This document shows positions 9,001-61,977 of a stretch of 64,000 bases of DNA, piece by piece. Location: assembly GCA_030704615.1 (NCBI GenBank), contig CM060731.1, positions 48,422,001-48,486,000 on the forward strand. The letters are read 5' to 3'. The notes under the pieces were generated by a model. That model did not search any database. It was not told the origin of the DNA and saw only the letters and a list, made by a program, of their open reading frames with translations. The DNA is from Takakia lepidozioides. Taxonomy: Eukaryota; Plantae; Bryophyta. Numbering within the stretch: the stretch's first letter is position 1; each line of letters opens with the position of its first letter. The translations under genes were made by a program, and so were the position numbers.

Positions 9001-9080
9001 GTAGAGAAATTGTTGTGCGCGATGCCAACCGCTTTCACCACTTTGATAATGGGGTATGTTCTTGTGGGGATTATTGGTGA
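6079..9080 (+). CDS. PLS-E-DYW PPR protein, organellar C-to-U RNA editing factor; model exons 6079-6307 and 6541-9080
   Basis: Five PLS triplets, E domain, PG-box variant AGCSSIE, intact HSERLA and CGDC zinc ligands, terminal CSCGDYW*. Donor AAAG|GTAC (6307) and acceptor TGCAG|GG (6540) are both phase 1 and join in frame. Confidence 0.93.
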
Positions 9081-26830: not shown

Positions 26831-28290
26831 GTTCCATCTCCTTAGGCAGTTGCTGTCCCTAGTTATTGTCTCTAGTTTTTCTGATAGGACCTACCCCATG
26901 TGTACTCTGGTTACGGGGCGGCGTCCCCTTCATCAGCCTCCATGGCATGTCATAGAGGTTATTTTTTCCTCCTTTTAATACATTGGCCTACCTCAGGCCT
27001 TCGAAAAAAGAAAAAAGAAATTGAAATTCCATGCTTCTACGCAGTTCTCCATGTCTTTTTTGTTGCTATGGATGCTTGCCATGTTTGTCTGTCTCTTGTT
27101 AGACATATTACCACAGTTATCCCATCTAAGACAAAAAATTTGGTGGGGGTGGCAGTAATTGACAAAAAAGGTATTTGTCAAGTTAAATAAGCACAGTGTG
27201 AAACTAGCTAGAATAAAGCTAGTTATTTGTATTTAACACTTGGATTTAGGTCAAGTGTTAAATCAGGTGTCAAGTTTAGTTTGACACCTGACCCGTCTTA
27301 TCTTCACGAGAGCGGCAGTCGCGCAGCTCATCTCTCTCGAGTTGAGCCTGCGCGACCGAGCTCCTTCATGCGTTTAGATCTGAGTGTGCTTATGATGGGA
27401 GTGTAGGTTGTTGTGGGGTGGAGTCCCCATAGCTTGAGGTGCCCCTGGCTCGACTTCTATTTTAAAGAGTGATGCTGTTGGATTCATGTTGTTTCTTATA
27501 TCAACACTATGTTTTTAGCTTTCTTATCACTCGAGAGAGATGACCTGTATCTAGTTTTCTAGTGCTAAGCTAGATGTGACGTTTTTGTTTTTAAGCACTA
27601 TTATAATATAGCTTGGTCACGAGAGCCGGTAGTTAGACTGGCAATATGTGCCTAGTGGAGCATAACAGAAAGGCAGGAACCACTCGAAGTGTCGCTACAA
27701 CAGTTCTAGCCTCCTGGGAATGTAGCGGGTCCAAGCTTTTTATAACAAGCAGGTGGGCTGGACCTGCTGTTTGGGTCTAAGAAGACTGGGTCGGCGGATA
27801 GGCCTCTATGGTTCCCAGGTGCAAAGGCCCCGTCTTGGGCTGGATGGATCTTTGGTCGGTGACGGTTACGCTATGGTGAAGTGGCGGATATGTGTAGGAA
27901 CGTCACATGCAAGCGAGTGCTTTGAGCGATTTAATCAAAAGATGATGTCTGAGGACATGTGGCACAGGTGTTCTCATCAACTGTGCAGATTGAGCATCTG
28001 ACAGTTGTGTTTGGCAGGAGTTCTGATCTCAGGGGTGAGCATTTGAAGGCAGGTTTGGAAAGGTTATTGATCTGGAACTCATTGAGCCAATGAGTTCCGC
28101 TTAAAGCCATTTTGCTGGAGGAGATTGCTGATTATTGATGTTCCTGGAGCTTCAGGTGCAGGCCCTGCAATCGCTGGCTAACAAGATTGATTAACAAGCA
28201 GAATCTGACGGGCAATCTGCCGAGAGCCTCATCTGCTTCTCGGAGGGGTTTCCGTAAAGGCCCGGAGGATTTAATCCATACAATGGCAAC

Positions 28291-28564
28291 CTAGGTGAGG
28301 TACCGAATCAACTCTGAAGCAGTGGCTATGGCGCCACCAGTGATTGCCGTGCGAATCATCTTGTCGTGATTAAAAGTGATCACGCTTTGTCACCCTTTCG
28401 TTCTTCAACATTGAGAAGGCCTCTAGCAATGTTCCATGAGCAGCTTCCACCCCTCCAATCTTGATGAAGCCGTCCAAAGTGTAGTTCAGAAAAGGATGGC
28501 CCAAGTCCACCAGCACATCTATAGTGGGAGAGTCAACTCTCGCTGATAGCCTCGAGTGCGGCAT
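28291..28564 (-). pseudogene. OEP16: Processed, internally deleted copy of chloroplast outer envelope pore protein OEP16
   Basis: MPHSRLSARVDSPTIDVLVDLGHPFLNYTLDGFIKIG matches the OEP16 N-terminus. After a deletion and frameshift, DKMIRTAITGGAIATASELIRYLT* matches the C-terminus. Confidence 0.8.
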
Positions 28565-28657
28565 TTCGCTCTGCTTTCCTCACACCCAAGTTCTTTCCTG
28601 CATCGGCAACAAATCTCTGCTGTCGCTGACGGATGGAGAGAGACACGGAGAGACGGA

Positions 28658-28846
28658 GATCTCATTGATGGCAAGAATCTGCCCGTGTGACCTCTTCACC
28701 TTCTTCAACTTCCTGAGGAAGTACCAAAACTTGGACTTTGCCCGCACTTCGTTGGTCGCCCACAACGTCATGCGGTACGCCTTCGGCTGCTCATCGGTTG
28801 GGGTAGGCAGTGCTCGCTCCACCACCTGGTGAAACCAAAAACTCGT
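28658..28846 (-). pseudogene. RPL18A: 5' fragment of 60S ribosomal protein L18a (eL20)
   Basis: [57 protein letters not shown]. The start codon position reads ACG and YQ is deleted. Confidence 0.9.
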
Positions 28847-28923
28847 GGCTCCTGCTTGCTCTCTCTCTCGGATCAGCAGAAGCTAGAAGGAGCGCGAGAC
28901 GGCCAATGCAGGCGCTGCCGTGT

Positions 28924-29415
28924 CTAAAAGGTAGGCTCATAACCATTGGTTGCAATGGCCAGGATGGCGAAACCAATGGCATGACCCAGAGCTCCCCAAG
29001 CAAGCACATCGACGAGGGTGAAACCAGCGGGGTCATTCGTCTTCAAAAAGCCAACGACCTCCTATGCCCGGCTATCACCGGCCTCGAAGTGAGTAACGCC
29101 ATTTTGTACAGGGAGTCCTTGCCTTGCAACATTGTCTCTCTGGAAGGGGAGGAACACAAATCGTCCCAGAAACAGAAGAGCTCTGGTGCTCAAGGAGATC
29201 ACAACCGTTGCATTGCATGTGGTCTTCGCCGAGGACTTGGCGATTCTAGTTTGGCTCGAAAACGACCGGTTGCTCATTGCCAGGGAATCCAATCGGTTGC
29301 CAGATCGCAGGCCGGGGAAGCTGGCCTGGACGGAGGCCACTCTTGCAACCTTCTTGCTTCCGGACAGAGTGGGAATGCCAGTGGCCACCCAGGAAGATGC
29401 AGCACAGGCAGCCAT
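28924..29415 (-). pseudogene. psaG: Near full-length photosystem I subunit G copy with one in-frame TAG (29062-29064)
   Basis: Transit peptide, then [77 protein letters not shown]...NGYEPTF*. Confidence 0.92.
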
Positions 29416-29878
29416 TATTGAAGCAAACCGTATCAAAATCTGCACAAACTGTAGGCGAAGCTTCAGAGACGGGCGCTGTGTGCAAAGATTTGTGCAAGAC
29501 CTGCGAGCTAGAGCGACAAGCCTGTGGTGGTGCACCTGTAACAACAAATGAAACCTGGGAACGGTTTGTAATGGTGAGAACGTTTTGGTGTTAAAAAAAA
29601 AAAAAAAAAAAAACCTTTTGATCTAATTTAAATGATTTAGAGCCTAATTGGTCATAACTTTGTCAGATGGACTCCGTTTGACTCAGTTTTTGGGGGGATA
29701 GCTGCAGAAAGGGGAAATCTACCTATCTTGACCTACCTATCTTGGTTTTAGTTTTTGGGACTCTGCTAAAAATCTAGGGAATTTTTAGAGTGTGAGTGTG
29801 CTATGAAAGATCCACAATTCTGTTTCTAGAACCTGTTCTGGTCTACATGAGAGATAAATCTGGGGATGTACTCCTTGT

Positions 29879-30622
29879 ATGGCTGGGGGAAATGAGGACG
29901 TAATTGAAGGGCAGGTCTCTTCTCTTAGCCTGTGCACACAAGGGGACAGGATTTATGTTTCCCAAGGAACTCAGACTGATTTGAGGGGAGAACAATTGGA
30001 CGAGTTGATTGCATACTGGGAGTCAGGCATTAGCAGTAGACAACAGACTGCTGTAGTTGGCATTGAGGGCCTCAATATCGCCTTGGACAGTCAGAACTCT
30101 GTTGGAGCCAGCAGTTCTGCAGCTGTAGGTGAAATACCAAAGTGGGTAAAAGCTAGGCTTGGAACACAGCCAAAGACAGCCCCGGGGACCAAGGTGTTCA
30201 GCCACAAGGCCGTGGTGTACTGGAGCAGAGGAGCTACACAAGTTTGTGCAATCAGACATGGTTGTAGCCGGATACACTCTGCACAGGGCAACCACGAGCG
30301 GGGGTTCATTAGCAATGACATGTTTGTTGTGCGTGAAGGAGATGCAGTCATTCTCAATGAGGACACCCGCAACCGTCTCAAAGCTTTCGAGTTGAGAGAC
30401 TATCAGACCCTACCTTTGTTTTCTTTAGTGTTCAGTGAGCGGGAGATAGGGGAGTATTGCTTTGTCTCTACCTGGCAGAAAGAGGAGGAGGGTTGGTTAG
30501 AGCGAGCTACTGTAGCTTGGGACAAGGTTAGTGGCAGGTTTCTGGACATAGATATACCTCCTACACCTTACCATCATGCAGAGCGAGGCACTTTGAGAGA
30601 AGTCTGGCAGTTGATAGCATAG
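29879..30622 (+). CDS. Uninterrupted 247-aa orphan ORF upstream of gag (candidate extra ORF of the gypsy element)
   Basis: ATG-to-TAG open frame on the same strand, ~300-400 bp before gag. No recognised domain. Confidence 0.5.
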   Translation: MAGGNEDVIEGQVSSLSLCTQGDRIYVSQGTQTDLRGEQLDELIAYWESGISSRQQTAVVGIEGLNIALDSQNSVGASSSAAVGEIPKWVKARLGTQPKTAPGTKVFSHKAVVYWSRGATQVCAIRHGCSRIHSAQGNHERGFISNDMFVVREGDAVILNEDTRNRLKAFELRDYQTLPLFSLVFSEREIGEYCFVSTWQKEEEGWLERATVAWDKVSGRFLDIDIPPTPYHHAERGTLREVWQLIA

Positions 30623-31000
30623 ATCAGGATTAGATCTTGCTTGGTCGGGCTTCTATTCTTCCCCTCCATCTCTGTACTAGTTTCATTACCTTGTACTTAT
30701 AGTTGCCAAAGCCTCTCTTGGTGGAGGCCAGTCAGTCCGGGGTTTTGGGCTGGGATATTCTACAGGTTAGCACTGCAGATGGATTTTGGTGTGGGGGTGT
30801 TGATGTTTTGATTTCTTGCGTTTGGATCCCCCCCAACACCTGCATGCTTGACTGTGCGCCATGTTGGTTTTGTGTGGGCGTTTGCTTTCATAGGGATTAG
30901 GCCGGATTTGATCACCGGTCAATCCTAGAGTATGTTGTCGGTGGTGAGGCTGGAGTGATGACCAGCAAGACCACCAGTGTTTCTTCTATGTTGAGGCTGG

Positions 31001-33014
31001 GTTGATTACCAGCCAACCATAGGAGTTCTTGCGGTGGATGCAGGTGCAGGTGCCCTGAGCCATTGGGATATGACCCTTAGACTGCAACAGGTGCCCACCC
31101 GTGTCACTATTAGATTAGTGTACTCTGGAGCTGTGGGCACAATCGAGTTGGATGACTTTATCCAGGAGTTCGACAGTTGGTGTGATTTGCAGCAGATGCG
31201 CAATCCACAGCTATTCACCCCATTCATGGCGTGGAAGGGGCTGTTCCAGCATTTGGAAGGCCCGCCTATGGACGATTACCACGAGTTCAGGTGAGGACAT
31301 GAAGCAGAGATTGAGGAGTGGAGGATGTATTGGTCACCTGACTACGTCTCCATTACTGGAGACACGACGCGACCAGTAGCTGCATCAGTACCAATATCTC
31401 CCACTACCAGCACTAGTAGTGGAACAAGTAGTGCCGGTACTTCTGCAGGTGGTACCAGTTCAAAAGGTGCTACTACTCCTCCTGCCACGACTACAACACA
31501 TGTGCCTAGATTCAACCCGGTGGTGGAGTTCTTCCAGGAGTTGCGGAGGAACTACCAAGGTGTACGGACAGAGAAGCTGCGAAGTTTGCAAGACTTCCAG
31601 CGCAAACCCAGTGAGAGTTTGCGAGAGGCCTACACTCGTATGAGGCGCTTGATAAGTGTGACCCAAGGGGTTACTGAAGCTCAGGCAATCCAGTTCTGGT
31701 ATGGAATTTTGGACAAAGAGCTCAGGAGAAGGGTGCGGGATGCAACCCTGTTACAAGCAGCCCAACCCACATTAGCAGATGTGTTTCTGCTGGCTGAGCG
31801 GATTGAGCTCAACATGGTGGAGGAGCGAGTTGTTACCATTGGGTTTGGCAAGGACATGCCTGCACGAGGCGCAGCTGCCAGCCCACAGGCACAAGGGACT
31901 GCCCAACAGCGTGGTCAGGGGGGCAAGGTTTCCCAACCCAAGTTCCATGGAGCTTACAGGGGACCTCAGGTGCAGAGGCCTGTGGCATCTTTTGCAAGCC
32001 AACAGCAACCAGGGGTGATATGTTGGACATGTGGAGGACCCCATGTCAAGAGAGATTGCCCAGAGAGTGGCAAAAGGCCAGCACAAACACAGCCTGCACA
32101 GTTGCAGTGTGGGCATTGTGGCAAGTATGGGCATGGAGATGCCCAGTGTTATGACTTGCATCCTGAGTTGCGCCCAGGTCAGTTCCAAGGGAACAATGGT
32201 GGCCGGGGGCGAGGTGGACCATCCCAGAGAGGACGAGGTGGTCGGGCACGAGGTGCAGGCCAAGGGCAAGCTCAACATGGCCAAGGACGCGGAGGTCAGG
32301 GTGTTGACCAAGGCATGGCCAACCGGCTTCAGCAGCTAGAGCAGAGGCTAGCTGCAATGGCTATAGCTCAGGCGGTACCGACTCCCAGGTGGGATGGTCC
32401 ACCTCCTGCTCCTGAGGGAGGAGATATGGGAGGCATGGGATTCATATGCGGAGCAACACTACCACTAGAGCAGGTGGAGTCTGCTGCAGCCGTGACTCGA
32501 GGAGCAGCACGAGTTCCTGAGCCACGAGGTGCAGAGATGGAGTTGGATTCACAACGTGGGGAGGCAAGCCGTCAAGCGAGGCTGCCTCAGTCATTCACCT
32601 TGGCGGAGACAGTGTCAACGCCATCCATGGCACCTAGTTCTCGCCCGACTGTTACCGAGGCGGAGGTTTCTATGCCATTGGGGAGAGCTACACGTGCAGC
32701 ACTGACACCTGCTGCCAAGGCTAGTGCAGCTGGTGTGTTGTTAGGGGCAGCCACCTCTGTGTGTCAAGCCCCACTGTTCTCGGCAACCATGATTGCGACG
32801 CCGGGGGTAAGACCAGCTGTAGTGTTCAGACTAGCAACAACATTCTGTGAGAGTGGGGAGGTCACTTCATCTTCTGCGGAGTTACTGGAAGGTGTAGTGG
32901 CAGAGGGATCCTCGGATTTGAGGGTCAAGACTGCCACGGCTGCGCCATGGCAAGCTGCAGCTGCCAGGTTGACGGAGCTGCCAGCTAGGCCAGCCTTTGA
33001 GTGCGCCATGGTGA
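31001..33014 (+). pseudogene. gag: gag region of the gypsy polyprotein (in-frame TGA at 31292)
   Basis: Capsid-like LDDFIQEFDSWC and QRKPSESLREAY...AERIE; zinc knuckles CWTCGGPHVKRDC and CGHCGKYGHGDAQC; RGG-rich stretch. Confidence 0.88.
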
Positions 33015-33277
33015 CCTGGGGGGTGCACTCTTTATAAACTGTGCATATCACGTGCGTTCGTCGCCTAATAAAAAAACCCCATGTATACGGGTCCTTGGAT
33101 AATTTATACCCCTCTGTACATATTTTTTGAAGATTATAAAACCCCCTCCTGTAAATATACAAAATTTACAATTTTTAAAAAGTACCCCCTTCTGTATGTA
33201 TATTCTCATTTTCCATCATTAAAAATAACCCTCCAATATGTATATGTATGTTTTTATATTATATCGAATTTATTCAT

Positions 33278-36200
33278 TTAAAACATAATAAAATATAACA
33301 AATTAATTAAAAAAAAATATTTGCCTTTGATAAAGTTGTCAAAGACTTTTCGGTCATTTGCATCAAGTACATATGTGTTTGACTTGACATTGTACTTTAA
33401 ACATGCTAACGCGATAATGGAATCCAAATCAACCATCATGTTATCCGTCAAATCGTACGTATAGACCCCTCCTCGAATTTTTGGTACCATGCTAACCCAA
33501 TCTCCATATGAGAAGGACGCTCCAATAAATCAACAGAATCCCTACATTCTACAAACCGCTTATTGATTTTCTTCCGCATTCTTTGAACCCTGCCCAAATA
33601 CCAAGTGCCTTTGGTTGCTCCTCTGCAGGTTTTCCCTGGTCTGCCTTTCCTGTTTGTAGTTTGGATCGCAGTCTCCTCATCAACAAAAAATACAGCACAA
33701 TCCGAACCCAATCCCAAGCTCGTGGCTTTGTTGCTGGTAGTTGGTTGGTTTTCTCGGCAAAACAACATCGATGCACTTCTTACTCGTGTCAATCTATCCT
33801 TGGATAGAGTAGGGTTGCCATTGAGTTGGCTAACCAAAGTGCTTTTGAATATGGTCTTCCCGTCTACTTTGACAAATGGAACCACCGCCTTCGGTCCATC
33901 TTTCTCTTGTTCAAACTCATCAATGACAGCATCCAGAGTATGTCTCAATTCACTCTGAATAAGTACCTCTTCCGCATGATCATCCAAAGGTTGGCTCAAA
34001 ACATCCTCCATTGAATTCGAAGGCCCGCACACCAATTCATCTTCCACGACCTCATTTTGAATATGTGTGTCTGCATTAAGAGGACAAATAGAATCTATGG
34101 CATCGAAATCATCACCCTCCACTTCCATGCTTTTGAATAGTTCGGCCTCCATTTGTCTCTCAATTGTCCATGGCTCATTATGCGTGTTAATGCTCCTGCA
34201 CTCTCAATCAAATCACACCCGTCATATGTCCTCTCATTCCGTAACATACCTCCCACTTTGCTGAAGAATATTTCACACACATCTGAACCAACAAGGCTCA
34301 AAGGAACTTGCACATGATTAAACTTATCCTTGAACAATTTGAGAACCACGTAGTGGCATGAAATTTGTAAATCCAAGTATGCTTCCCTGCTAATGAAGAA
34401 GGATTTCAGATTATACACCTCGTGGTGGAATAACCACAACTTCCACAATCTGAAAAAAAACGATACCTTCGCAGCAGATTGTACCCTCTCACACAATGAC
34501 ATGTGAGGAGACAAAAAAATGTCGATGTAGCATGAAATGATGTATAGGTAAATTTCAGTACCTTTGGTCCTCTCCCTTCGATGATTCACAGTTGATTGTA
34601 TCTCCCTCAAACAAGCTTGCACCTTCCGAGATGCCAGTCGTTGAGCTGCTGCCCAATTCTGTCGATCTTCTCTTTTAATATCACATTCCCGAAGTCCATG
34701 CTTGTCCACTGAAAATGAATGGTAGACCAATAACACATGATTCAATGTAGCAACCTCATCACCCAACACCAAAGTCCGTGATGCACTGTCCAAGGGATTT
34801 ACCAATTTTTTCCCATTGTGGATGAAGTCCTGATCATGGAGTCCGTATATATCTCCTCCGTTGCACACTCGACATGTAAACAACCATCCTTCCCAAGGGA
34901 TGCAAAATCTACTTCCAGCCCCATTGGCATAATCTTCTAACATCACTTTTCTCCTCCTACTATCTCCGTCTGAAGCATGCCCAATTATAGGCCCAACCAC
35001 GTCCCTCACATATTTGTCCCACAACTGTCTCACCACTTCCCATTGTGATCTCACAAAATTGTTGTCAAATCTATTGCAAGTGAGCTGGATTACCAATACC
35101 AATCGAGGTAATCGTACATGTAGAGGATTTGCTATCAACACTCTGGCGTAATGGGCAACCACATTGTTTTTGAATGCCTCCACAATATGTTCGTACCCTG
35201 ATTCCCCTTCTCCCACTTGCACCACAAAATTTGAAATACATACATGGTTGTCTTGAAGCCCACAGAACCCGAGAAGGGTGTCATCCCTAGCAATCCAACG
35301 TACCAATCGCTTCACAACAGTTTCATCTTCGGCCACCATCACTGGGATGCTTCCCATTGGAATATTTGCATCTTCCATCACATTTCTGTAAATTCCAACC
35401 ACATGCTGAAATATATCATCCCTTTCTCCCGCTTTGTACTTCAAACCTTTCCTCAAAGACCGTCTTGTAGTATCAATAGAAGGACCCCCCACATTTGAAG
35501 CCAAAAAATGATGCAATCTCGGACCCCCCCAAAGCTGCACAGTCTCAAACATTGTTTTTGTGCTAGTACCATACCTCTTCCCTTGTGGAGACCTGTCAAT
35601 ATTCTTGCCCATATCAACAAGAAAATCCCACAAACTTTCTTTTCCTTCAAAATCCCCCCTCCTATGTGCATCAACAATATCACGACAAAATTTGAGAACA
35701 TCTCCTCTTTCAATTGCCTCAATCCCAGACTCCTTCAAACTCCTACATCGCACAGACAAGGATATCACTTTGGTCCTGGCCTCCCACAATTTGAACCTCA
35801 ACTGTCTCAACTCCTGTCAAATTTGAACTCAACTGTCTCAACTCCTGTCTGTTTTTGTAAACTTGTTTGACAATCTCGGCATTTCCAAGATATGACAACC
35901 TTCTTCCCTTGCCAGTATCTCTCTCCCATCTACATTCCATGGCACCTCTTTCTCTATATACCCTCATTCTGAAGTCATTTTCCAAGGGAATGGAAGAACA
36001 TGCTGAACAGCCTTATAGTGTCACGTGGAGGAGGTGCACATTGTGAGTGTCATTACGGAGTTACCCAAGGGTTTTGAGGGGAGTACGGCTACAGGCAGTA
36101 ACAATGAGAGTGGGTTCACAAGACGAGGTATTCGGTTCAGACCACCTTCACCGCCACCCTCAACTACTGTAGAGTCAGACACAGACTCGGAGGCTTCATC

Positions 36201-37745
36201 AACAGGTGTGCAGTTTCATTCGCATTGTTGTGGGACGACATGTCAAGTTTGGAAATGGCTCCCCATCCAATGACACTCTAAAACAATCCGCGTGCCGAAA
36301 CGTACCAACAACCTTATGCTCTTGATTGGTTAGAGTGATGGTTGCATTTGTCAACGGCTCGACATACCACTTCTTTCCTCCCTTGCTATCTTGAAGGAAT
36401 GGTTTCAGACTTATTCTCTGCTGGTTGTACTCCCACCATTCATCCCATAGGCCCCAACACAAACTGTCTCTTCCTTTGTTGCATTGGGACCTTTGCTGTA
36501 ATTGTCAATCCTCGATCAGATCTGCCCGTTGGGCAGCGTCAACACAAGTGTATGGAGTTTGTGACGAGGATGCTCCCATTGTTGATGCCACAATTGGATT
36601 GTCAAGTGGTGGGGATGGCAACATAGGTTGACTGACCAAGAAAGAGCTTAGATCCTGTTGCTTTACATCTTTGGCAATCATAGGCTTTGGAGGCCTTCCT
36701 CTCTTTTTGCAAGGTCCTTCACTACTTCCAACCTTCTGGCAAATCTCTGCATCGACATGAGTTTTCCTTTCACATGCTCTGTCAAAGAAGATTGCAAAGA
36801 ACCTGTCCTTGGAAACAAGAGTAGCCACTTCGAATCAAGTGGGCACCTAATCCTTATGGAACCCAACTGCGAATAGTCTCCAATTGTGGCTTCCACAATC
36901 TCAAATCTGTTTCCAGGATTGTCCTCACAAAACCGAGCGACTTCCTCTAATGCCTCCTTCACCCTGTTCTTCTTTGCATCTAATGCTTCATCTGCATTTA
37001 CAGGGCTGATGACACATTGTGATGAACCCTTCCCATGACGCCTCTCATAGGCTATGCGATGCCCCTCACTCCTCAAATGAGATCTCATAAAGTTTGCACA
37101 TGCATCATATGGTTTGTTTTTCCCATACCGTGCATAAACATCCTCACACTCAACACACCATATGTGGAACATTGCTTGTCCTTGTTGATCCTTTGTCATC
37201 AGCTCAAACTTGTCACATCGTCCTTCTGCAGAGATTTTCCTTTCAACGGCTCTAATTTTTTCTGCCATTTTTGAATATCGTTGGATGTAGCCAATGTGCT
37301 GCACAATCTACCAGATCTCTGCTGAAGTGCATGCTCATGTGCATGGTCTTCATTTCCACCATCGCCAGCAAAGGGTGTATCAGGGTCCATCCTCATCTTG
37401 GTAGACACTGGTGCCGGGTCCTCGCCTGGTCTGTCCTCATGCAAGATCGTAGAACCACTGGAAGATAGAGGTCTTTTCAATCCTTGGTCCCCATCATTTT
37501 GGTCTGAAATCTTAATGTGTACAGTATCCCTTTCAGAACCATCCTCTCTTCTTGTTTGGCTGAAAGGACACTACCCCCCATGGAAAGGAAATGAAATTTT
37601 GCTGAGACAAGCTCATCACCTATAATTTCTGCTCGGATGCATTTGTATGTGACACCTTGCATAGTGAACACAGAACCAAGCCTGTTTGGTGATGCATCTC
37701 CTCCAACAAGCAGGACTTTTACTTCCAACTCTTCTTCCATGATGA
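33278..37745 (-). pseudogene. Frameshifted P-superfamily-like DDE transposase
   Basis: HTH-like GKRY...GGPRL..FL..N..GPS..T.RR; D1 AEDET (~35326); D2 ASDGD (~34969); QDFIHNGKKL.N (DxxH); DRQN...AQRL; E in GSDVCEIFFS (~34273). Upstream frames contain Cys/His fingers and an AT-hook KKRGRPPK. Confidence 0.8.
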
Positions 37746-38397
37746 GTTCACCTGCAAAATGCAATGAAAACATTTCAAATCAGACCTTGATAGACCAATA
37801 ACAAAGCACCCGAGTTGGAAGGTTCCAAAGTCCTGTTTTATACAACCCTATAGGCTGTCCAAGCAGGGACTACGTTGATAAGAGGATGAAATGTATACAG
37901 AAGCAAGTACCTGATTGATGAGTTTGACGTTGCTAATTTTTGCTGCTGCTATTGACCAAATGCTGCTACTTCCACTGCTGGTAGCCCTCTTGGGTGATCC
38001 TGAACCCATAGTCCATCCTTGCATCAGCGGCTAGCCCTCCCTCCACACTAACATATTTAAATACAAAGTTCTGTCAAACTCCCTACGATGTTGCATGAAG
38101 AAAGCTCACCTTGTTGACAATATTGTCCCACCGCTGTGGATCAAATTTATAGAACTCCTGCCAGCGCTGTTCCTTGCTCCGAATCTGGCCCTCTTGGATG
38201 ATTTTGCACCCACGATCCTCTCCCTGCATCAACAGCTACCCCTCCTCCACACTAACAATGCGTACATCATGCCTCTGCAGCTACTACTGTGGCTTCCAGT
38301 TGATCATCTACCCATGCAGGTTTCTTGTAGCTATCCTTCCACATGGAATCATAGGTAATCTGGAGCTTGGAATCCACCATCTGGAAATTTAGGGACG

Positions 38398-38916
38398 ACT
38401 CTGATAACAGGGAAAAACAGGCTGAAATGTGTTGAAGAAGGTACCTTCATTAGCAGTCCCTTGTTCTATCTATTGCGCTGCTGCCGCTGCTATTTCCAGT
38501 TGACCATCTACTCACATTGTCCCACCACTGACTGGGGTCAGAAAAGTATTAATTCCTTGAAAGCTTCTCTCCATCTCTGTTATCTTTTTTTAGGTACTGT
38601 CATGCTACCACCTCGGCAGTAACTTGCAAAGTCACTCCAGAGCACCGCAGATCCACCCAACGAGCTAACTTACAAAATTCAATACATATGCTTCAGGGCT
38701 GAGTCTGATGAGAGGGAAAAACAGGCTGAAACAGGTCAAACCAGAAGGTGCCCTCAGGCTGAAATACGTTGAAGAAGGTACCTTTCATCAACAGTGCCTT
38801 GCTCTATCAATTGCGCTGTTGCCGCTGCTGTTTCCAGTTGACCATCCACCCACATTGTCCCACCATTGACTGGGGTCAGAAAAGTGTCTCATTCCAAAGC
38901 TTCTCTTCATCTCTGT
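38398..38916. repeat. ~180-bp diverged direct repeat inside the P-like element
   Basis: GGGAAAAACAGGCTGAAA...GTTGAAGAAGGTACC...GACTGGGGTCAGAAAAGT...CATCTCTGT at ~38410 and ~38712. Confidence 0.8.
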
Positions 38917-38929
38917 GGTGCTATTGTAG

Positions 38930-39225
38930 GGTGACTTCAATGCCCAAGTGGGCAAAGGGCTCCATCAGGACGATATCATTGGGTCTTCTGGTGAGGACGA
39001 GCTGAATTCTAATGGCAGACGGTTAATTAACTGGCTGGAAGAGCTTCAGCTTTTGACCTTGATTAACAAGACAAGAGGTGACCAAGTGCAGTGGACTCGT
39101 GAGAAATCCCAAACTAGGGAACGTTCCATTGTGGACTATATCATAATGGACAAAATTTTGTTCCCCCAGTGTGCCAATGTGTTGATCGACAGAACTGATA
39201 TTGGTACCTCTGACCACTTCCTGGA
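38930..39225 (+). mobile_element. Fragment of a non-LTR retrotransposon AP-endonuclease
   Basis: GDFNAQVG...NSNGRRL...WT...SIVDYII...SDH, the C-terminal APE motifs. Confidence 0.8.
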
Positions 39226-42011
39226 CTGAGATCAAAAGGCGTTTTCCCAAGGCTAGAGTAGAAGAGATTCTCAAGGACCTGGACCTGGATCCGCAAGTCT
39301 TGACCCTGCACCTTAAATCCAACTTAGAGGCTGTAGTGTCCAAAGCCATGTCTATTGCCATGAGATTGTCTGATGAAAATGAAGTTAGGCAGAAAACTTC
39401 CCTGAACTTGTTTCTAGTCAGTGACATGGGGGAGGACATCTTGGATGACCTCAAGGGTCCACCCACTCTCGGCACTAGACTGAAATTTAAACTCAGGGAA
39501 GGAAGCCTACCTTTGAACATCAAACAGAAGCAGAGAGGAAAGGGGGAGTGCACTCTCCCAAGTGAACCTGCATTATTCAGTTGGCAAGCAAGTGTCTGAA
39601 AAATTGATCCATTTGAAGACACCACGGTGCAGCTGAACACGGCCTGACGTGACAACAATTAAACATCATACTGAGACAAGAGAAGCAGTCAAGGACATAG
39701 TCATGCATATGGCAGCAAGTGATCACCCTTCAAACATGATTGAAAACATACATGAGGTCAAAGGCAATTCGAAATCAGCGAAGGGTACTGTAGCTAAGAG
39801 TTGGAGTGTCTTTAAAGACAAAGGGAAGAGAAAGAAACACTTCACTGGCAATGAGGGGAGGCTGTGGAAACGCCAAGAGGATGGCACAAATGATAGAAAT
39901 AACAGGGTTGGGCAAAGGATCCTGCAGGAAGAAGAAAGGGTATGTCAGCATGGAAAGGACGTGCAGCTCATTCCAATGGAAAGGGAAACATTCGTGCAGT
40001 TAAGTACAACAACCAATTGCCCTTCAATTATGGCTGGAATTTTCCAAAAGGCGAGGGATGATAAGGAGGAGAATAGGCCTGATACAGTGAGTTGCTTAGG
40101 GGCAATGAAACAACTTTCTTTTGAAGAAATCAGCAATTACACAAGCAAGGGAAGGAAACTATAGTCCTTGTATGTGAAAGGAGGGTAATATGGTGCAAGT
40201 GCAAAAGGAAGGGAGGCACAAGGAGGTCACTTACTGCTAATTGGGATATGCTAGAGATCACAAGAAGGGAACAGGGGTACCCAGTAAGCAGAAGAGCAGC
40301 TGAGCAGGTGTGGGATGATGTTCGGGCTGCAAACACAACGGCGAGCCAAGCAACTGTCACTACAACTAAAGATACGAGTAAGTGGAGCAACATGATGGCA
40401 GCATGGAATATCTGCCGAGGGATGCTGGTTGGCAAGGAGCTGCGACATATGGTGAATGAGGAGAGAGACATGTCCCGAATCAACATGGTTCAAACACGAT
40501 CTGAAAGATGTAAAGAAAAGGTGCATTTGAAGGCAGAAGGGTATTATTTTCAGACTCGTGAAGAGCCTAATTACACAAGAGAAGAACGAGAAGGCAAGCA
40601 AGGAAAAATCTCACAAGCGGAAATGCAACCCTAAACGGCGAAAGTAGAACATACACGACGAGCACTGGAGAACATACCCATGAAACGTCAAGCATGTGCA
40701 CCACGTGCAGTGAAGGGAAGAATGTATGGGGGGCAGCAGTTATAACTGAACTACAAATGCGTTTGCTGCACTCAGTGACGAAAGAATACGGAGAAGCGGT
40801 GAAACTGCCATATGTGTTTATCTATGGACATTGGACACAAAAGAAAGGATGTTGGGCGCACCTGCGATTCATGGAAAACCAAAAGACAACAGGTGTCGAT
40901 AGATTGCGGAGCTAGTGGAGCTCAGGACATTCTGTCTGAGTATGTGAGACTTCCTACAGACAATAAGGGAAATTTTTTCACAGTGCGTCTAATCGAAGAC
41001 TGCTCTTCAGCAGTCTGCTTCAACTGCAGCCAAATGCTCCACATTAAGGTGGATTGCCCAACAGGAAAGAGAAAGCTTTCTCCAGCATCCAAGCTGCCAC
41101 TGGGCAGCCAAACTAGAGGGTCAAATGGCAGGGTCTCCCTCCAGTGCAACAACAACAATCAAGTGCTCAATCCCAAGATCTCCGTTCTTCGGCCCAAACT
41201 CTTCCCCCCAGTGATCACTTGCAAGTTGCGGGCAGTAGAGGTGCCTTCCAACACCATATCAGCAATCAGGACCCTATGCAACTCGAAGCGGCATCCACCC
41301 CTCGCAGGCAACCACTTGGCAAAAAAGATAGCAGCAGAGCTGCTGCACAAATCAAACCCTAAACTCCATCAGCACAAAAAGCTATGCCTTCTATGGTGGT
41401 CCACTCTCCAAAATTCTTACCAGTATTGCAAACAATCCATCTTTTGCAAAAACTTGCCTCAGGCAGGCTTCATTTCCAGGCCAAGACCTGAAAGGGTGCT
41501 CAGCCCTGGAATCCACGGAAGCGTCATTAGCAACATGTGTCACGCCAATCATTTATAGGAAAGGAAATAGGCCTAATGTGCTCATTACCTCTGATGACTG
41601 GGAATCTAGTGCCCCCACATTGTCCTACCATGCCCTGTGGAGAGGAGGGGAGAGGAGAGGAGGGAAAAGAGAAAGCCCACGGAAGGGAAGGCGAACGCGG
41701 GAGAGGAGGAGAAAGAAAAGAGAAAGCCGCGGGAGATCAGGGGAGAAAGATCGTGGAGCGAAAAAAAAAAAAAACAAACAAAACGACGATCCCACGATTT
41801 GATCTCGGGATGCATCGCGGCAAAATCGACATTCTTACCACTACACTATCCCTTAAAACTCAACAACCCCCTCCTGTAAAATTATATTTAAGGTGTTTTA
41901 AACCCCCCTCTGTATGTATAATGTTGTACATGGGGGGGTTTAAAATACCCCCTCCTGTGCACGCACGTGGCTGGTACATTTAATGAGGAGTGCACCCCCC
42001 GGGCATGGTGA

Positions 42012-44065
42012 CACCTGGAGTTGTCTTGTTAGACAACCAGGATGGCATTTTCTCTTTGAGTGGACCGGCAGGCAAGAAGTACCGGCCACTGCGGGTCTTG
42101 TTGGACTCGGGAGCTCAGCCACTGATGTTGGGCAAAGCTGCTATTGCAGGTTTGGGCCTCATGGAGGCAGATATGGGGCCTTGTCCTTTCCAGATACAGA
42201 CATCTCTGGGAGGATCAGAGCAGGCTCGGGGCATGACACGGCGTGAGTTGGCCATTGGACTACAAGCAGATCATCCTGTAGATGGCTCAGTGATGCGAGC
42301 CAAGGCTATTGTGACAGACGCGGTCTCTTACAATGTCCTCATTGGTGGGGCAGTGTTATATCCCATGGGCTTCACCCTGGACTTTTGGGAGGAGTCAGCA
42401 TCCTACAGGCCTGGATGGCAGTCAGGGGATGGTCGTCGTGCACAGCTCCCTGTGACATTCATTGGGGGTATTGCGGCTGCCCAACGGGGCAAGATGCCAA
42501 CACTAGCCGCCTTTACAGCTGCAGTTAGTTGGCCTGGAGAGTTGCTGGAAGGCAATGCCCATGCAGAGGATGTGCCACCTCCAGCAGAGCAGGATGACAT
42601 GCATGGTATGGCGGAGTTGTCTGCCATGGTTGCTCACACTCCATTGTGGGGTACGAGCAAGGATTTGCAGCAGGTTGCTGATCGACGGGTGCAACAAGCC
42701 TGGGTAGAGGCTTTTGTACCGTCAAGAGAGGAGGAGAGTGCGGGTATTGCACCAGGACCACCTCAGTTGTCACCATTGGATACCACACCTATTGTGTGGC
42801 AGTATATGGATGAAAGCATTTGCTTTCTGGACTTGTTTGGCGGGATCAGCACCGGATTGGCTGCTGTGCTACAGGCAGGTGTGCGGGTAAGGCGTTACTT
42901 GTATGTGGAGAGGGATGAGACTGCACGACGCATCTCACTGCGCCATGTGGCTCAGTTGGTACAGCAGTACCCTGACTTGTTGCCTGTGTCTGCAGTTCGT
43001 GGATACCAACAAGCCTTGCCAGCAGACATTTCCTTGTTGGGGGCGCAAGATTTGGAGCAGGTTGGCTCCATTGATCTGATAGTGGCAGGTTGGCCCTGCC
43101 AAGGGCATTCATCATCCGGGCATGACAATGGATTGCGAGACTCGAGGACGGGTCTGTTTTGGGAGATGGTGCGGGTTTTGCGCCACTTGCAGCTTCATCA
43201 AGCTGTATCTCCAGCATACATCTTGGAGAATGTGCCACTGATGGATGATTCTCGGGCCAGGGTGATGGCCAGTGTGCATCAAGTCCGGTCGTGGCTTGGG
43301 TCAGCAGTGCTGCTGGATGCAGCTGCAGTGGGATCACGGGCTCATCGTCCACGGCTTTGGTGGACTAACTTGATGCCACCCGCACTGCTCAAGCGTGCAT
43401 TTGATGGGGTGCAGCGGCCAGCACACCTCACCGTGGATGGCATTTTGGACACAGGGAAGCAGTCTCAACGTGTGAGACACGATGACCGTTCGCCTTTGGC
43501 AGTGGTCAACAGGGTGGGTCAACCACGAGCAGCATTACCTACACTGCTCAGCTTCCCAGGATCCCATGCTTTTCGGGATGGTGGACCTGGCCTCTTGTGG
43601 GATAGCCAGTTGCAACAGTTAGTGGAGCCTAATGCCGACGAGCGAGAGCGGGCTATGGGATTTTCCACTAGGACCACGGCCGTGCCTTCTCTTTCTGAGG
43701 CATCACGTCGTCAGGTGTTGGTGCAAGCAATGGATCTCAATTGCTTGACCTGGATTATCAGTTTGGCTATGGCTGAGCAACGTAGAGTGCGGAGTGCACT
43801 TCCCTTGACGGTCTCTCTACCTACCGAGACGGTACAGGCAGCGAGTGGGGGCGAGCCGGTGAGGACCACGGGGTGTAGACATCCATGGCACACGTGGGAG
43901 GTGCTCGAGGTTCAGAGGGAGTTGGCAGCCAAGGCAGCTGTGATGGATGAGGTTGGGGATTCTTCTCGGGATGAGGAGGTTCTCAATGATGAGATGATGG
44001 GGCAGGATGAGGCCTTGTCATTGACTGAGCAGGCAGGGAATACTGCTCAAGAGGTTGCAACATAG
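42012..44065 (+). CDS. Gypsy aspartic protease followed by a DNMT3-like C5-cytosine DNA methyltransferase domain (~42815-43770)
   Basis: Protease LLDSGA (42104). MTase motifs in order: I FLDLFGGISTG, II YVERD, III ADI, IV AGWPCQG (Cys at 43097), V RTGLFWE, VI LENV, VIII HRPRLWWTN, IX ERERAMGF, X RRQVLVQAM. Confidence 0.92.
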
Positions 44066-47000
44066 CAACCACTGGACGCCTCCTCTACCTCTAAGCCCAC
44101 TGGACTTAAGGTTGCAGTTACGGAGGACAATTGGGAGCCTGACATTGGACCCATTGTCACCGGAGGAGAGAGACGACGTATACGGCAGTTCCTGAGGGCT
44201 TACAGGAATTGCTTTGCCTTCAGTTTGAAGGACTTGGGAGCACTGAAGGGTCGAGAGATCCGTATTGAGTTGGCCACTGACACGCCAATCTTTCGGAGAC
44301 CCTATAGATACAGTGACATGGAGAGGTCTTTGATTCAGATGAGGACTCAAGATCTCTGGGAGGCAGGTTTGGTGGAGCTCTCTGGTGGAGAGTATGCTTC
44401 TGCCACAGTGATGCCAGCCAAGAAGGATGTCTATGGCAATTGGACGGAGAGACGTATGTGCGGTGATTACCGGCCTGTAAATCGTCAGACCAAGTCCGAT
44501 AGGTATGCCATGCCGACACCAGAGGAGATCTTTGATGCCATTGGGCATTCCAAGGTCTTTAGCACGTTGGATTTACGATCCGGATATCACCAGTTGCCGA
44601 TCAAGGAGGCGGATAAGCAAAAGACGACATTATGGGGATCAATGAGCACGGGAAGGATTGCCTATACCAGTGGCGGTTCTTACCATTTGGGCTTAAAAAC
44701 GCTCCCGCTGAGTTTCAAAGAGTCATGGACAGGATTCTAGCAGGGGTGGAGTTTGCTCGGTGCTACATAGATGACATCATCATCTTTAGTGCTACGGTGG
44801 AGGAGCATGAGAGACACCTTCAGGTGGTATTGGAGCGCTTGAGAGCGCACGGATTGAAGTTACATCCGGGCAAGTGCAAACCAGATTGAGTATCTGGGTC
44901 ACATGATATATCCTGGAGGATTGGGGGTACAGCAGACTAAGGTAGAGTCCATTGCACAGGTTCCATGCCCCACGGATGTGAGCCGAGTTCGAGCTTTCAT
45001 GGGGTTAGCAAACTATTACAGACGGTTTGTTAAGGGATTTAGTGCCATTGCAAAGGCTCTAACCAAGTTGACCAAGGTGGACCAGGAGTGGCAGTGGGAA
45101 GATGAGCAAGAACAAGCTTTTCAAGAGCTCAAGGCGAGGTTGACCTCGGCGCCCATCTTGAGACGACCTATCAGGGGGCGTCTTTTTCAGCTGCATACAG
45201 ATTGGAGCATGCTGGGGCTTGGAGCGGTGCTCACACAGGTGGATGATGAGGAAGAGAGTTCGTAGTGGCTTATGCTAGCCGCTCGAACAATGCTGCAGAG
45301 TCTAAGTATAGCTCATATGAGGGAGAATGCTTAGCTGCAGTGTGGGCCGTGGCACACTTCAGGTGCTATCTATACGGCAATCTCTTCACCCTTGCCACGG
45401 ATCACCAACCACTCAAGTGGTTGATGGAGTCAGACAAGCTTACGGGGAAGCTTGCACGGTGGGCACTCATCCTTCAAGAGTATGACTTTCAGGTGGTGCA
45501 TCGACCGGGTTTGGTCAATCGCAATGCATATGGGTTGAGTCGCAATCCATGCACGAGCTAGCAGGATGACACTGGAGCTCGGTGGCATGGTGAGACAGAC
45601 GAGGAGATGGTGCCCGGATGGCATGCATCTGCATTTCTGTGTATCTTGGCAGCGGAAGGCCAGGTTGGACCTGCAACATGGATGACTGTAGATCAAGTGT
45701 CTGAGGACCCTGAGGCCAGCAATGAGTAAGGTGGCGCCAAAGATATACATGAGGATTCAGTTGTGTTGGACTACCTCTGCACTGGAGACACTGCAGCCAC
45801 TATGACTGCCAAGGAGATGGATCGGATCCTACAACGAGCCAAGAGGTTCAAGTGGGAGGGGACACACCTGCTCCGAGTGTGGGAGGATGGTCGAGTGAGG
45901 ATTGTGCCTCACCCAACACAGCGGGCACGGTTAGTGCGGCATGCCCACGAGGAGTTGGGGCTTTTTGGGGTGCGACGCACCCATAGCCTACTGCAGGGGC
46001 AGTATTGGTGGCATGGTATGCACACAGAGGTGCAACAATTTGTGGCTAGGTGCATGGTGTGTGACAGGGTGCGTGCTTCATTCAACGCCCCTACTCCACA
46101 ATTGCACCCTCTTCCAATCATGGGATTGGGCTACAGGTGGAGTCTTGACTTCGCAGGGCCGTTGCCACTGACCATGCGTCACAACAAGTACGTGTTGGTG
46201 ATGGTGGAGCACTTCTCCAAATGGATTGAGTTGGTTCCATTGCCTGATAAGGCTAGTGACGGAGCTGCGTATGCATTCTTGGATTGTGTGCTTAGCCGAT
46301 TCGGTGCTCCAGCTAAGGTACTCACGGACCAAGGGAGAGAGTTCTTGGGGGGAGTTTCAGGCTTTGTGTGACAAGACCTTGATAGACCACCGCACCACTT
46401 CTCGGGATCATCCTGAGGCCGATGGCTTGGCAGAGAGAGTTGTTCAGACAGTAAAGAGGGGTTTGCGCAAGTATGGCTTGCAGAAGGGACACCTAGGAGA
46501 TTGGGACCTTCAGTTACCCTGGTTAGTCATGGGCTACAAGTTCAGCAAGCAAGCATCACTTGCCTCCTTCTCACCATACTTTCTTCTCTTTGGCCGAGAG
46601 CCGGATTTGCCTACATCCATTCGCAGAGAAGCTGCTACAGTTCTTAATCTTGACGATCCAGACGTGTGGGCACGTGCATGTGAGCAGCGTGCAGAGTTGT
46701 TCAAGAAAGTCATGCCCATGGCTTTCGAGAACCTTGCCATTGCACAACACCGTGATACGTTGAGGTATGCTACCATACGTGGTGGGGGCTATCGTCATGG
46801 GGTTCGGAGATTCAACCTTGGTGACTATGTCTATCTGCAGCAGACTACTCTTACGACCCTGGATGTGACTGCATGACGTGTTATTTTGAGGGTTCGAGAG
46901 GTCTTGCCCTCAGGCGTCTTGGTCTTGGAGGGTCGGGATGGCATAACGTGGAAGGACCATGTGCGTAATTGTGCGCCCTGTCACCTTCCGAATGTCGATG

Positions 47001-47188
47001 GTAGGATTGACCCAAACCTGGCAGTGGTATCTGCAGGTTTGAGGTGCATGTTGTGTGGGTCTGCTAGAGGGGCAGCCACCATGCTGGTGTGTGATCGATG
47101 CTCTCGAGGTTGGCATATGGGATGCTTGACACCACCTCTTGAGATGGTTCCGGATGGGGATTGGTTATGTCCACATTGCATTGGATAG
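44066..47188 (+). pseudogene. pol: Gypsy RT-RNase H-integrase-PHD, with frameshifts and nonsense codons
   Basis: RT: RMCGDYR..N, LDLRSGYHQ, PFGLKNAP, YIDD. RH: HTDWS..GLGAVL, YASR, TDHQPL. INT: degenerate HHCC, SLDFAGP, TDQGREF, GLAER. PHD: CMLC...CDRC.RGWHMGC...WLCPHC. Confidence 0.93.
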
Positions 47189-47593
47189 TGAAAGTGGATA
47201 CACCATGGAAGGCTAACAAGAAACGCAAGGCCCAGCTACTAGGAGACCTTGAACACACGAGATCCTGGCTCAAGTTCACAGATTGCAAGACAGCGACTAA
47301 CGATGGGGCTACACTTGTACCCGGCCTCTTGGTCGATAGAGTTTGAGCACAATAGGGACAGGGATAGAGGACTTAGTACGGCTGTGGCTATTACATCTTG
47401 TAGCTATCTGGAAGTAGAGGGACCTATCCACCAGCTAGGGGGGCGATTGTGGTAGACTACTTTATTGTGCATATATGTGTGGTGTGGTTTGGACAGCGAT
47501 GTAGTTGTGTTGCGATACGTATGCGCACGACATATTCCAAAAATGACAACGTGAGGAATTGGGTCATTGTGGTACTTTAACATTGGTCACAAC

Positions 47594-48054
47594 CAATGTT
47601 GGACTAGTATACCGATAAGAAACTGGTTTCAATACTGGTATGTATACTGGTATGAAGTACCAGACCACTTTGGTATCACCTCAGGCCACTACCTAGCATA
47701 TACCTGTATTGGCCTCGTATCTGCTTCCTAATATTGTGGACGATACCATACCCGTCTGGTAGGTGGTTGAAAATCTGGTACCTGATACGGCCAGTACCAT
47801 ATCCATATTTGTGAGGAAAACCTAGGTATCAATACTTTGAGGAACTTGACATATCATGAGTTTTTTTTTTATACCAGACCAGTATTGATAATACCCTGGT
47901 ATCAATTTCTAAAAACTCTTGCTATGGATACCACCATGGTATCCAAATCTCATATTTTGCCAGTACCAGTACCTCCCTGGTATCACAATTGGCCGGAGGC
48001 CTATATACCAGTACCAGCCTGGTGTGTTCAAAATATGATACCAGTCCAACACTG
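47594..48054. mobile_element. Non-autonomous hAT-type MITE (461 bp)
   Basis: TIRs CAATGTTGGACTAGTAT / ATACCAGTCCAACACTG, 8-bp TSD GTCACAAC (47586-47593 and 48055-48062), many internal ATACCAG/CTGGTAT repeats. Confidence 0.88.
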
Positions 48055-61593: not shown

Positions 61594-61957
61594 TGTTGGA
61601 AAACCACTGGCGTGTGGTCGGGCTAGGGATTGAACCTAGGACCTCCCCCATTCCGGTGGGGTGCTCTACCACTGAACTACCCGTCCCGTTCTGTTCTCAA
61701 AGTGTCGTGCAAGGGCTATAACCTTGACACTCCAACACTCCCCCTCAAGGCATAGCCCTTATAGCTAATGCCCACCCGTTCTGACCACCGCCCCAACCTT
61801 GGCTCTGATACCATGTTGGAAAACCACTGGCGTGTGGTCGGGCTAGGGATTGAACCTAGGACCTCCCCCATTCCGGTGGGGTGCTTTTTTACTGAGCTAC
61901 CCGTCCCGTTCTGTTCTCAAAGTGTCGTGCAAGGGCTATAACCTTGACACTCCAACA
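61594..61957 (-). mobile_element. TRIM with tRNA-containing LTRs (Helenus-like): LTR 61814-61957, PBS, 76-bp internal region, PPT, LTR 61594-61737
   Basis: Two 144-bp TGTTGGA...TCCAACA repeats, 139/144 identical. tRNA-iMet PBS TGGTATCAGAGCC directly follows the 5' LTR. PPT GAGGGGGAG precedes the 3' LTR. Confidence 0.92.
61615..61686 (-). tRNA. tRNA-derived cloverleaf inside the LTR (pseudo-tRNA, identity unassignable); second copy at 61835-61906
   Basis: GGACGGG-TA-GTTC-AGTGGTA-GAGC-A-CCCCA-CCGGAAT-GGGGG-AGGTC-CTAGG-TTCAATC-CCTAG-CCCGACC-A. Pol III A and B boxes are intact; there is one mismatch each in the acceptor and anticodon stems. Confidence 0.75.
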
Positions 61958-61977
61958 CTCCCCCTTGGTATCAGAGC

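Follow-up and report, generated by a model that had tools for sequence, protein, structure and literature searches.

We analysed a 64,000-nucleotide stretch of the genome of the moss Takakia lepidozioides (GenBank assembly GCA_030704615.1, contig CM060731.1, positions 48,422,001 to 48,486,000; called the window below, with positions counted from its first letter). We observed that it contains a retrotransposon encoding a C5 cytosine methyltransferase (MTase). Judged from the sequences of the element and its relatives, this MTase is a genuine DNMT3-like domain, fixed in a large bryophyte retrotransposon family. The element is arranged as gag-protease-DNMT, a stop codon, and then reverse transcriptase (RT)-RNase H (RH)-integrase (IN)-PHD. 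We lean, by a modest margin of belief, towards a model in which translation yields Gag-protease-DNMT3 up to this conserved stop, readthrough into pol is rare, and the packaged MTase would methylate the element's own cDNA. The parts of the element are as follows.

27176..47532, plus strand: whole element, 20,357 bp, or 11,360 bp without the nested transposon; termini TGTC...GACA
27172..27175, plus strand: left target-site duplication, TATT
47533..47536, plus strand: right target-site duplication, TATT
27746..27859, plus strand: captured fragment of a CP29-like light-harvesting gene in the 5' region (E 1.7e-4 to CP29.1)
28655..28852, minus strand: captured ribosomal protein L18a fragment, antisense (E 1e-29)
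28927..29211, minus strand: captured antisense piece of psaG/psaK that contains a stop (PF01241, E 2e-12)
29879..30622, plus strand: open reading frame (ORF) of 247 amino acids (aa) upstream of gag
31070..33014, plus strand: gag, with a premature TGA at 31292, split from the protease by the nested transposon (Retrotrans_gag, E 0.002)
33015..42003, minus strand: nested DNA transposon with 43-nt imperfect terminal inverted repeats and an 8-bp duplication, CATGGTGA
42012..42460, plus strand: aspartic protease, DSG at 42104
42800..43789, plus strand: DNMT3-like C5 cytosine methyltransferase domain, 330 aa, motifs I-X unpermuted
44063..44071, plus strand: conserved in-frame stop, TAG CAA CCA, which fits the readthrough motif UAG-CAR-YYA
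44114..45555, plus strand: RT and RH, with frameshifts near 44633, 44880 and 45249
45733..46870, plus strand: DDE integrase (H2C2 zinc finger, rve core), with a frameshift near 46347
47045..47182, plus strand: C-terminal PHD finger (PF00628, E 1.9e-11)
47437..47446, plus strand: polypurine tract AGGGGGGCGA, kept in relatives
47448..47532, plus strand: 3' terminal segment B, final letters CACGACA, present once in the window

The MTase lies in a 692-aa ORF (41987-44065) that also carries the protease motif. An earlier note on this DNA had described a C5-MTase domain with canonical motif order between protease and RT, and our searches agreed. PF00145 matched with an E-value of 4.7e-13 (49.7 bits, cut-off 22), and motifs I (DLFGGIS, 42830), II (YVERD, 42902), IV (GWPCQ, 43088), VI (ENV, 43226), VIII (RAHRPRLWWTN, 43337), IX (ERERAMGF, 43640) and X (43718) follow one another in the canonical linear order. 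DRM identity was rejected, since the motifs are linear instead of circularly permuted. A profile built from 22 relatives matched human DNMT3A first among solved structures (1e-19), ahead of a DRM-type entry (3e-9) and HaeIII (3e-6). DNMT3A/B was also the best fold match of an AlphaFold model of the domain (E 4.8e-14, template modelling (TM) score 0.59), a model with a predicted local distance difference test (pLDDT) of 72.7 and a predicted TM (pTM) of 0.79 whose residues 210-263 fall below pLDDT 50 and are unreliable. The assignment as DNMT3-like, unpermuted and unlike DRM is thus borne out by both sequence and fold. The catalytic cysteine and ENV are retained in 47/47 full-length related domains, which come from mostly decayed loci, and we regard catalytic activity in intact copies as likely. 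At the motif X glycine the window copy deviates from 46 of 47 relatives, so that its own enzyme is probably impaired.

Removal of the nested transposon places gag, protease, MTase and the start of RT in a common frame, in agreement with the earlier note. A neighbouring host gene was rejected as the source of the MTase, which shares that frame. The further claim that the MTase is an integral polyprotein domain stood in part: it belongs to the element, but an uninterrupted polyprotein with RT that mutation later broke is not supported, as the stop between them is conserved. Loose contig ends at 42004 were seen in all four contig runs (39, 21, 4 and 2) and match the gag end at 32977-33006 at 28 of 30 letters by eye; since they run into the gag end, uninterrupted copies exist. 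The gag of the window copy is 46-49% identical to Marchantia gag regions (P0123/P0124). The protease motif, LLDSGA with its Asp at 42104, scores E 0.007 with Pfam Asp_protease_2, which is below the family cut-off. The window copy itself is a dead element: gag contains a stop, and pol has four frameshifts and additional stops, of which three (45559, 45727 and 46874) flank the integrase.

We then consider the stop itself. The earlier note had read the TAG at 44063 as a mutated CAG, a reading that the relatives contradict. In run X1, from the window's species, the codon is invariant in 480 contigs, and positions 44061-44071 show no variant at a frequency of at least 1%; positions 44059, 44060, 44072, 44073, 44078 and 44080 do vary. 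RT starts after the MTase in 60 of 81 related loci (L numbers), and 57 of these 60 have a stop at the matching place; CAG was found there in 0/60. TAG (35) or TAA (18) followed by CARYY accounts for 53, closer reading gave the same stop and CARYY in L041, L042 and L068, and L051 reads TAG TAG CCA. At L071 the MTase-RT junction is lost. CARYY follows in 56/60 loci, and the exact UAG-CAR-YYA is present in the window and in 6/60. The contexts differ between lineages, with CAA CCA in the window and L003, CAG TTA in L045 and L046, and CAA TCA in L049 and L081. These encode three different dipeptides, yet all fit CAR-YYA, so a nucleotide motif is kept while the residues change. As a control, 580 premature stops were followed by CARYY in 4 cases and by CARYYA in 0.

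In plant cells and plant viruses, efficient readthrough has the consensus UAG-CAR-YYA (PMC3159437). Low-rate readthrough of the conserved stop is, in our judgement, very probable, and the main product would then end after the MTase. Eight Marchantia proteins terminate 74-75 aa past the MTase. With the DNMT on the Gag side of the stop, it would be made in excess over RT.

A different possibility is that the stop is a true terminator and that RT and integrase are made from a separate start, a spliced RNA or a sub-genomic RNA, with the MTase still on the Gag side. We consider this improbable. An ATG does stand 3 codons past the stop in most Sphagnum-like copies, some Marchantia gene models link the MTase to RT over the stop region (P0126, P0127, P0131), and two-ORF layouts with GAG-PROT followed by the remainder occur in plant Ty3/gypsy elements (PMC6317226). 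However, no ATG is close in the window family, L003, L045 or L081: the first lies 85 codons on in the window family (in the window, in frame and within RT), 48 in L003, 117 in L045 and 117 in L081. The frame is also maintained over the stop, and CAR-YYA is conserved at the nucleotide level.

Several observations nevertheless weigh against readthrough as a rule for the family, or against a need for it. The context is weaker in the Sphagnum-like family, mostly CAA CCC and then ATG, with TAA in 18/53, and it fits re-initiation as well. L029 and L062, which represent one insertion site, have TAC in place of the stop. In the deeper-branching P0358, P0154, P0176 and P0400 (P numbers denote proteins), the MTase runs into RT without a stop. 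These stop-free relatives, together with a sister group in which the MTase sits between RH and integrase (see below), imply that Gag-level dosage is not required by all relatives. The conserved stop looks like a later feature that would have shifted protease and MTase to Gag-level expression.

We next asked how the MTase has evolved. The ratio of nonsynonymous to synonymous substitution (dN/dS, Nei-Gojobori) between lineages was 0.09-0.16 for the MTase, 0.05-0.11 for RT and 0.04-0.12 for integrase, with dS near saturation and 4/40 window pairs usable. On these values, about 0.1 for the MTase, the domain is under purifying selection, contrary to the neutral evolution that the earlier note named as a refuting outcome. 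It appears extremely unlikely that the MTase is carried along neutrally, was captured only once or stems from algal contamination. The window copy is dead with an altered motif X, and within the decayed Sphagnum-like family the MTase ratio rises to 0.55; but RT, RH, integrase and protease reach 0.35-0.56 in the same decayed set. The presence of the domain across contigs and protein relatives argues against a single capture. Run X1 gave 61,937 contigs on 41990-47700, with summed depth alike over MTase, RT and integrase (a rough measure, not a copy number), and the family in this moss is one of high copy number. A point on the other side is that the 60 loci with RT after the MTase are mostly of one family and were retrieved via the MTase, and as such cannot reveal copies that lack it.

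As to contamination, the host genes of the window are moss-like. Among the best 120 of 1910 hits, its PAL gene comes closest to Sphagnum PALs, the nearest of which share 85-88% identity with it; PALs of Ceratodon, Physcomitrium and Pohlia reach 81-85%, and those of liverworts, hornworts and vascular plants do not exceed 75%. The gene is accompanied by PLS/DYW-type PPR genes. The earlier worry about an algal contig finds no support here.

Trees of the MTase (38 rows) and RT-RH (24 rows), which were hand-picked, unrooted and built without host DNMT3, both part two architecture groups (100/99 and 100/100) and both place the window copy among Marchantia and Sphagnum-like copies. In the RT tree the Sphagnum-like copies group more closely with Marchantia than with the window's moss, which may reflect old paralogy or transfer.

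The earlier assignment to Ty3/gypsy holds for domain order and RT and fails for the termini. The order gag-protease-RT-RH-IN with a DDE integrase is that of Ty3/gypsy elements (Metaviridae), and the open RT-RH frame of L045 matched Ty3 RT best (E 1.7e-75), followed by 8r0s (5e-48) and by retroviral RTs, none of them better than 5e-30. TG...CA termini, a duplication in the 4-6 bp range and a polypurine tract are also present; two direct long terminal repeats (LTRs), equally part of the definition, were not found. The earlier note had the MTase right, and overlooked both the absence of an LTR pair and the PHD finger. DIRS/Ngaro was rejected because an rve and H2C2 integrase is present and the Pfam scan gave no tyrosine recombinase family, and a chromovirus because a C-terminal PHD finger stands where the chromodomain is expected. 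Troyka was set aside as well, as its CG...CG termini and 3-bp duplication (PMC12440569) differ from those seen here.

The solved PHD structures nearest to this finger are those of CHD4, PHF12, KDM5B/5A, ATXR5 and PHF21A. Most of these are readers of unmodified H3K4. The element's PHD presumably lacks the aromatic-cage Trp. We think it fairly likely that the finger tethers the element to H3K4-unmethylated chromatin.

The termini may reflect an unusual mode of integration. An LTR-pair search found no second copy of either element end within the window, and the TGTC...GACA element is flanked by the 4-bp duplication TATT. Read contigs share a common 3' end at 47532, and the left boundary was set at 27172 from loose contig ends past that 3' end, which start GC-TGTCAAGTTA and match 27176-27185. 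The sequence TATTTGTC was found twice in 9100-31000. We refer to the 5' and 3' ends as A and B. Sixteen loci have the polypurine tract and a B end; 11 run directly into flank and 5 continue as NN-TGTCA, and L049 is a sixth with that continuation. Six relatives have both ends, and the 4-bp duplication is perfect in five and retains 3/4 letters in the sixth. The B-NN-A junction is present in L008, L045, L049, L081 and loose contig ends of run X1, and is precise and palindromic (GACA-NN-TGTC), whereas the A-B join is variable. L040 is complete as A-coding-B-AT-A-B, and L075 shows the 3' half of this layout. Most of the copies examined, the window's included, lack the A-B duplication. L081 (1-9285) is a circular 9,158-bp unit with a B-GC-A junction.

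A slightly better than even case can be made that B-NN-A is the functional LTR of the cDNA, and that the cDNA integrates when its internal palindrome GACA-NN-TGTC is cut. A two-LTR circle opened at this palindrome would give A-coding-B-A-B, which could be copied again, and a one-LTR circle or a doubly cut linear DNA would give the LTR-less form. One observation runs counter to this as the sole route: L024, without the duplication, and L075, with it, occupy one insertion site, and for that pair at least the explanation is B-B recombination or assembly collapse.

The palindrome could also involve the MTase directly. The enzyme might be retained because it binds or methylates the CpG-containing terminal palindrome CACGACA-NN-TGTCAYG and so steers the integrase's choice of junction or blocks self-insertion, with catalysis perhaps secondary. 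The junction occurs in 6 loci from two distant lineages, and MTase and A-B-A-B repeats co-occur in Klebsormidium (PMC5890265). On the other hand, the chlorophyte-type L079 lacks such a B end within 200 bases of the polypurine tract, and the catalytic residues are strictly retained. We rate such a role as unlikely.

These data suggest a model for the element's life cycle. The main translation product, Gag-protease-DNMT3, would end at the conserved stop, and occasional readthrough would give RT-RNase H-integrase-PHD. The protease quite probably releases the MTase, which would be packaged and enter particles in Gag-like or capsid-like amounts. Methylation of the cDNA or of the insertion site is plausible, and we narrowly prefer the cDNA to host chromatin as the chief target. 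In that case each new copy would land already methylated in silent chromatin.

Alternatively, the abundant Gag-side MTase may act mainly on host chromatin or other transposons in the nucleus instead of its own cDNA; possible outcomes are silenced competitors, a sealed insertion site or restraint on copies of its own family. Its amount would exceed the needs of one cDNA, in heterochromatin the moss host's DNMT3b methylates CG and CHH de novo (PMC6453930), and de Mendoza et al. raise host-benefit and insertion-site options (PMC5890265). Yet the MTase domain has no targeting module of its own, the PHD being at the integrase end, and the sister-group fusion between RH and integrase ties the MTase to the replication complex. 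This alternative is a minority view for us, though the likeliest of the rivals.

Two results lend no support to cDNA methylation. CpG and CHG depletion was uninformative: the CpG depletion of the element (observed/expected 0.42-0.55) lies inside the range of the host genes of the window (0.33-0.74), and so there is no self-methylation footprint. The KnitGypsy-Dnmt3 domain from Klebsormidium did not methylate yeast DNA, an outcome its authors call inconclusive; related DIRS-borne Dnmt3 domains do methylate CG de novo in yeast (PMC5890265).

The closest published system is KnitGypsy-Dnmt3 of Klebsormidium nitens (de Mendoza et al. 2018, PMC5890265), and the window element is a land-plant variant of this kind. 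Kinship was judged by description, as K. nitens sequences were not in the comparison. Both have Gypsy domains, an intronless unpermuted Dnmt3-like domain in the coding region, and purifying selection. The DIRS-like A-coding-B-A-B repeats of KnitGypsy-Dnmt3 (Fig. 4 legend, PMC5890265) are found here in relatives L040 and L075 and are absent from the window copy. According to its authors, the DNMT of KnitGypsy-Dnmt3 shares one ORF with RT and RH, as it does in our deeper P0358-like relatives, whereas a conserved readthrough-type stop intervenes here. The host is an alga there and a land plant here, with very high copy number, and PHD has 0 mentions in the available text of that paper, while the present element has one. 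SymbioDIRS-Dnmt3 of Symbiodinium (PMC5890265) likewise carries a Dnmt3-type domain in a retroelement, one that methylates CG de novo in yeast, but it has a tyrosine recombinase in place of a DDE integrase, its DNMT in the Pol ORF with RT, and a dinoflagellate host.

The plant Ty3/gypsy lineages of REXdb (Phygy, Selgy, Tcn1, OTA; Neumann et al. 2019, PMC6317226) share GAG-PROT-RT-RH-INT and 4-5 bp duplications, and some groups have GAG-PROT as a first ORF. Compared by description, the present element differs in having no LTR pair and in the added DNMT and PHD. Type I readthrough in tobamoviruses, benyviruses and pomoviruses and the gag-pol UAG readthrough of murine leukaemia virus (MuLV) also place a structural protein before the stop and the polymerase after it (PMC3159437, PMC5009743); the type I viruses use an in-frame UAG followed by CAR-YYA, as here. 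In contrast to these viral systems, the present element has a protease and a chromatin enzyme upstream of the stop. Comparable stops occur in the plant retroelements RIRE2 and SIRE1. Gypsy-7a_cRei of Chlamydomonas (PMC9940879) has a PHD in its Gypsy polyprotein as well, with ordinary LTRs and no DNMT mentioned in the available text. EpiLTRs (bioRxiv 10.64898/2026.05.21.726589) combine writers and a reader in a Gypsy polyprotein, with DNMTs that are sister to DNMT4 and occur with DAM and a chromodomain.

The earlier note knew of no such element from embryophytes, and we found no description of one in the literature searched, which did not cover subscription papers, Repbase entries or theses. 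In the available texts, Gypsy-Dnmt3 is described in K. nitens only (PMC5890265), a 2026 preprint gives 'streptophytes (Gypsy-DNMT3)' and PMC12344493 gives 'streptophytes', both with no land plant named, and an opinion paper (PMC6338049) states that transposon-borne cytosine methyltransferases are absent from land plants 'such as tracheophytes'.

To describe the range of the family, protein searches returned 212 and 67 relatives. The land plants named among the 187 relatives listed are Marchantia, Calypogeia, Riccia and Sphagnum; these 187, mostly without a species name, include no hornwort, vascular plant, Physcomitrium or Klebsormidium name. The full protein scan gave 246 clusters at E 1e-30 or better, and 20 scan proteins that were looked up included one cluster named Scenedesmus and one named Closterium. 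Among 167 long proteins, a redundant set, 53 have the layout gag-protease-MTase and 47 have RT-RH-MTase-IN with or without PHD, the latter including Scenedesmus, Chromochloris and Monoraphidium. The large and diverse chlorophyte sister group carries its DNMT3-like domain between RH and integrase (RT-RH-DNMT-IN-PHD; L079, P0363, P0184, P0186), and no description of it was found in the literature examined. Viral contigs gave 5 pattern matches and 0 relatives. Prokaryote genomes gave 147 pattern matches and 1 relative, L081, a eukaryotic element in a cyanobacterial assembly. P0027 carries the label of a bacterial DNA cytosine methyltransferase but is almost the same as L046. L081 and P0027 look like eukaryotic contamination of bacterial assemblies.

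A broader and more tentative idea, to which we give less weight than to the model above, is that of an old green-lineage clade (chlorophytes, Closterium, liverworts, mosses) with a writer-reader kit consisting of capsid-level DNMT3 (in bryophytes, by way of the readthrough stop), cDNA methylation, PHD targeting and internal-palindrome integration. Given its very high copy number per genome, the clade may have fed moss methylomes. PHD targeting of H3K4-unmethylated chromatin would then be likened to the ADD domain that steers animal DNMT3, and integration at an internal palindrome, from a circular or LTR-permuted cDNA, would leave most insertions LTR-less and invisible to LTR finders.

The 5' region of the window copy contains a string of captured pieces (27746-29211), light-harvesting on the plus strand and RPL18a and psaG/K on the minus strand, all from highly expressed genes; this suggests template switching onto packaged mRNAs. 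Between them, 28270-28580 (minus) may be an OEP16-like piece. The 247-aa ORF upstream of gag had no Pfam match, no Atlas hit above 0.78 and no tblastx match in the 81 loci. The nested transposon contains a 573-aa ORF (34095-35816, minus) with neither a Pfam nor a PDB match, whose motifs we presume to be P-element/THAP9-like, which would be unusual for a plant. Also in this transposon are an ORF with a zinc knuckle (40803-41558) and, near 38930, a GDFNA endonuclease-like stretch.

Just downstream of the retrotransposon is a short hAT-like non-autonomous element (47594-48054) with terminal inverted repeats and an 8-bp duplication, GTCACAAC. Elsewhere in the window are two long single-ORF PLS-class PPR genes (1292-4555, minus; 6492-9080, plus), the second with E, E+ and DYW domains of the organellar RNA-editing factor type, an XTH fragment (18217-18828), a GH17 glucanase (54867-55799), the single-ORF PAL (57487-59667) and a Ty1/copia integrase region (61936-64000). 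Two tRNA-like ARAGORN calls without a proper anticodon (61614-61686 and 61834-61906, minus) lie in a 152-nt direct repeat.

In conclusion, transposon-borne cytosine methyltransferases have been published for algae and protists, and here they form a high-copy family in a moss. Since most copies have no LTR pair, annotation that relies on LTRs would overlook the family; databases list its ORFs as hypothetical proteins or as DNA methyltransferases, in some cases with bacterial names. The family is also present in Marchantia, a transformable model with methylomes and full-length Gag-PR-DNMT models (e.g. Mp4g09160), and there the question left open in 2018, what the enzyme does for the element, can be put to a direct test. 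The readthrough layout further yields a prediction on dosage, which the algal description does not offer. If the proposed model is true, arrival in a pre-methylated state could shield the element from host surveillance or limit its harm.

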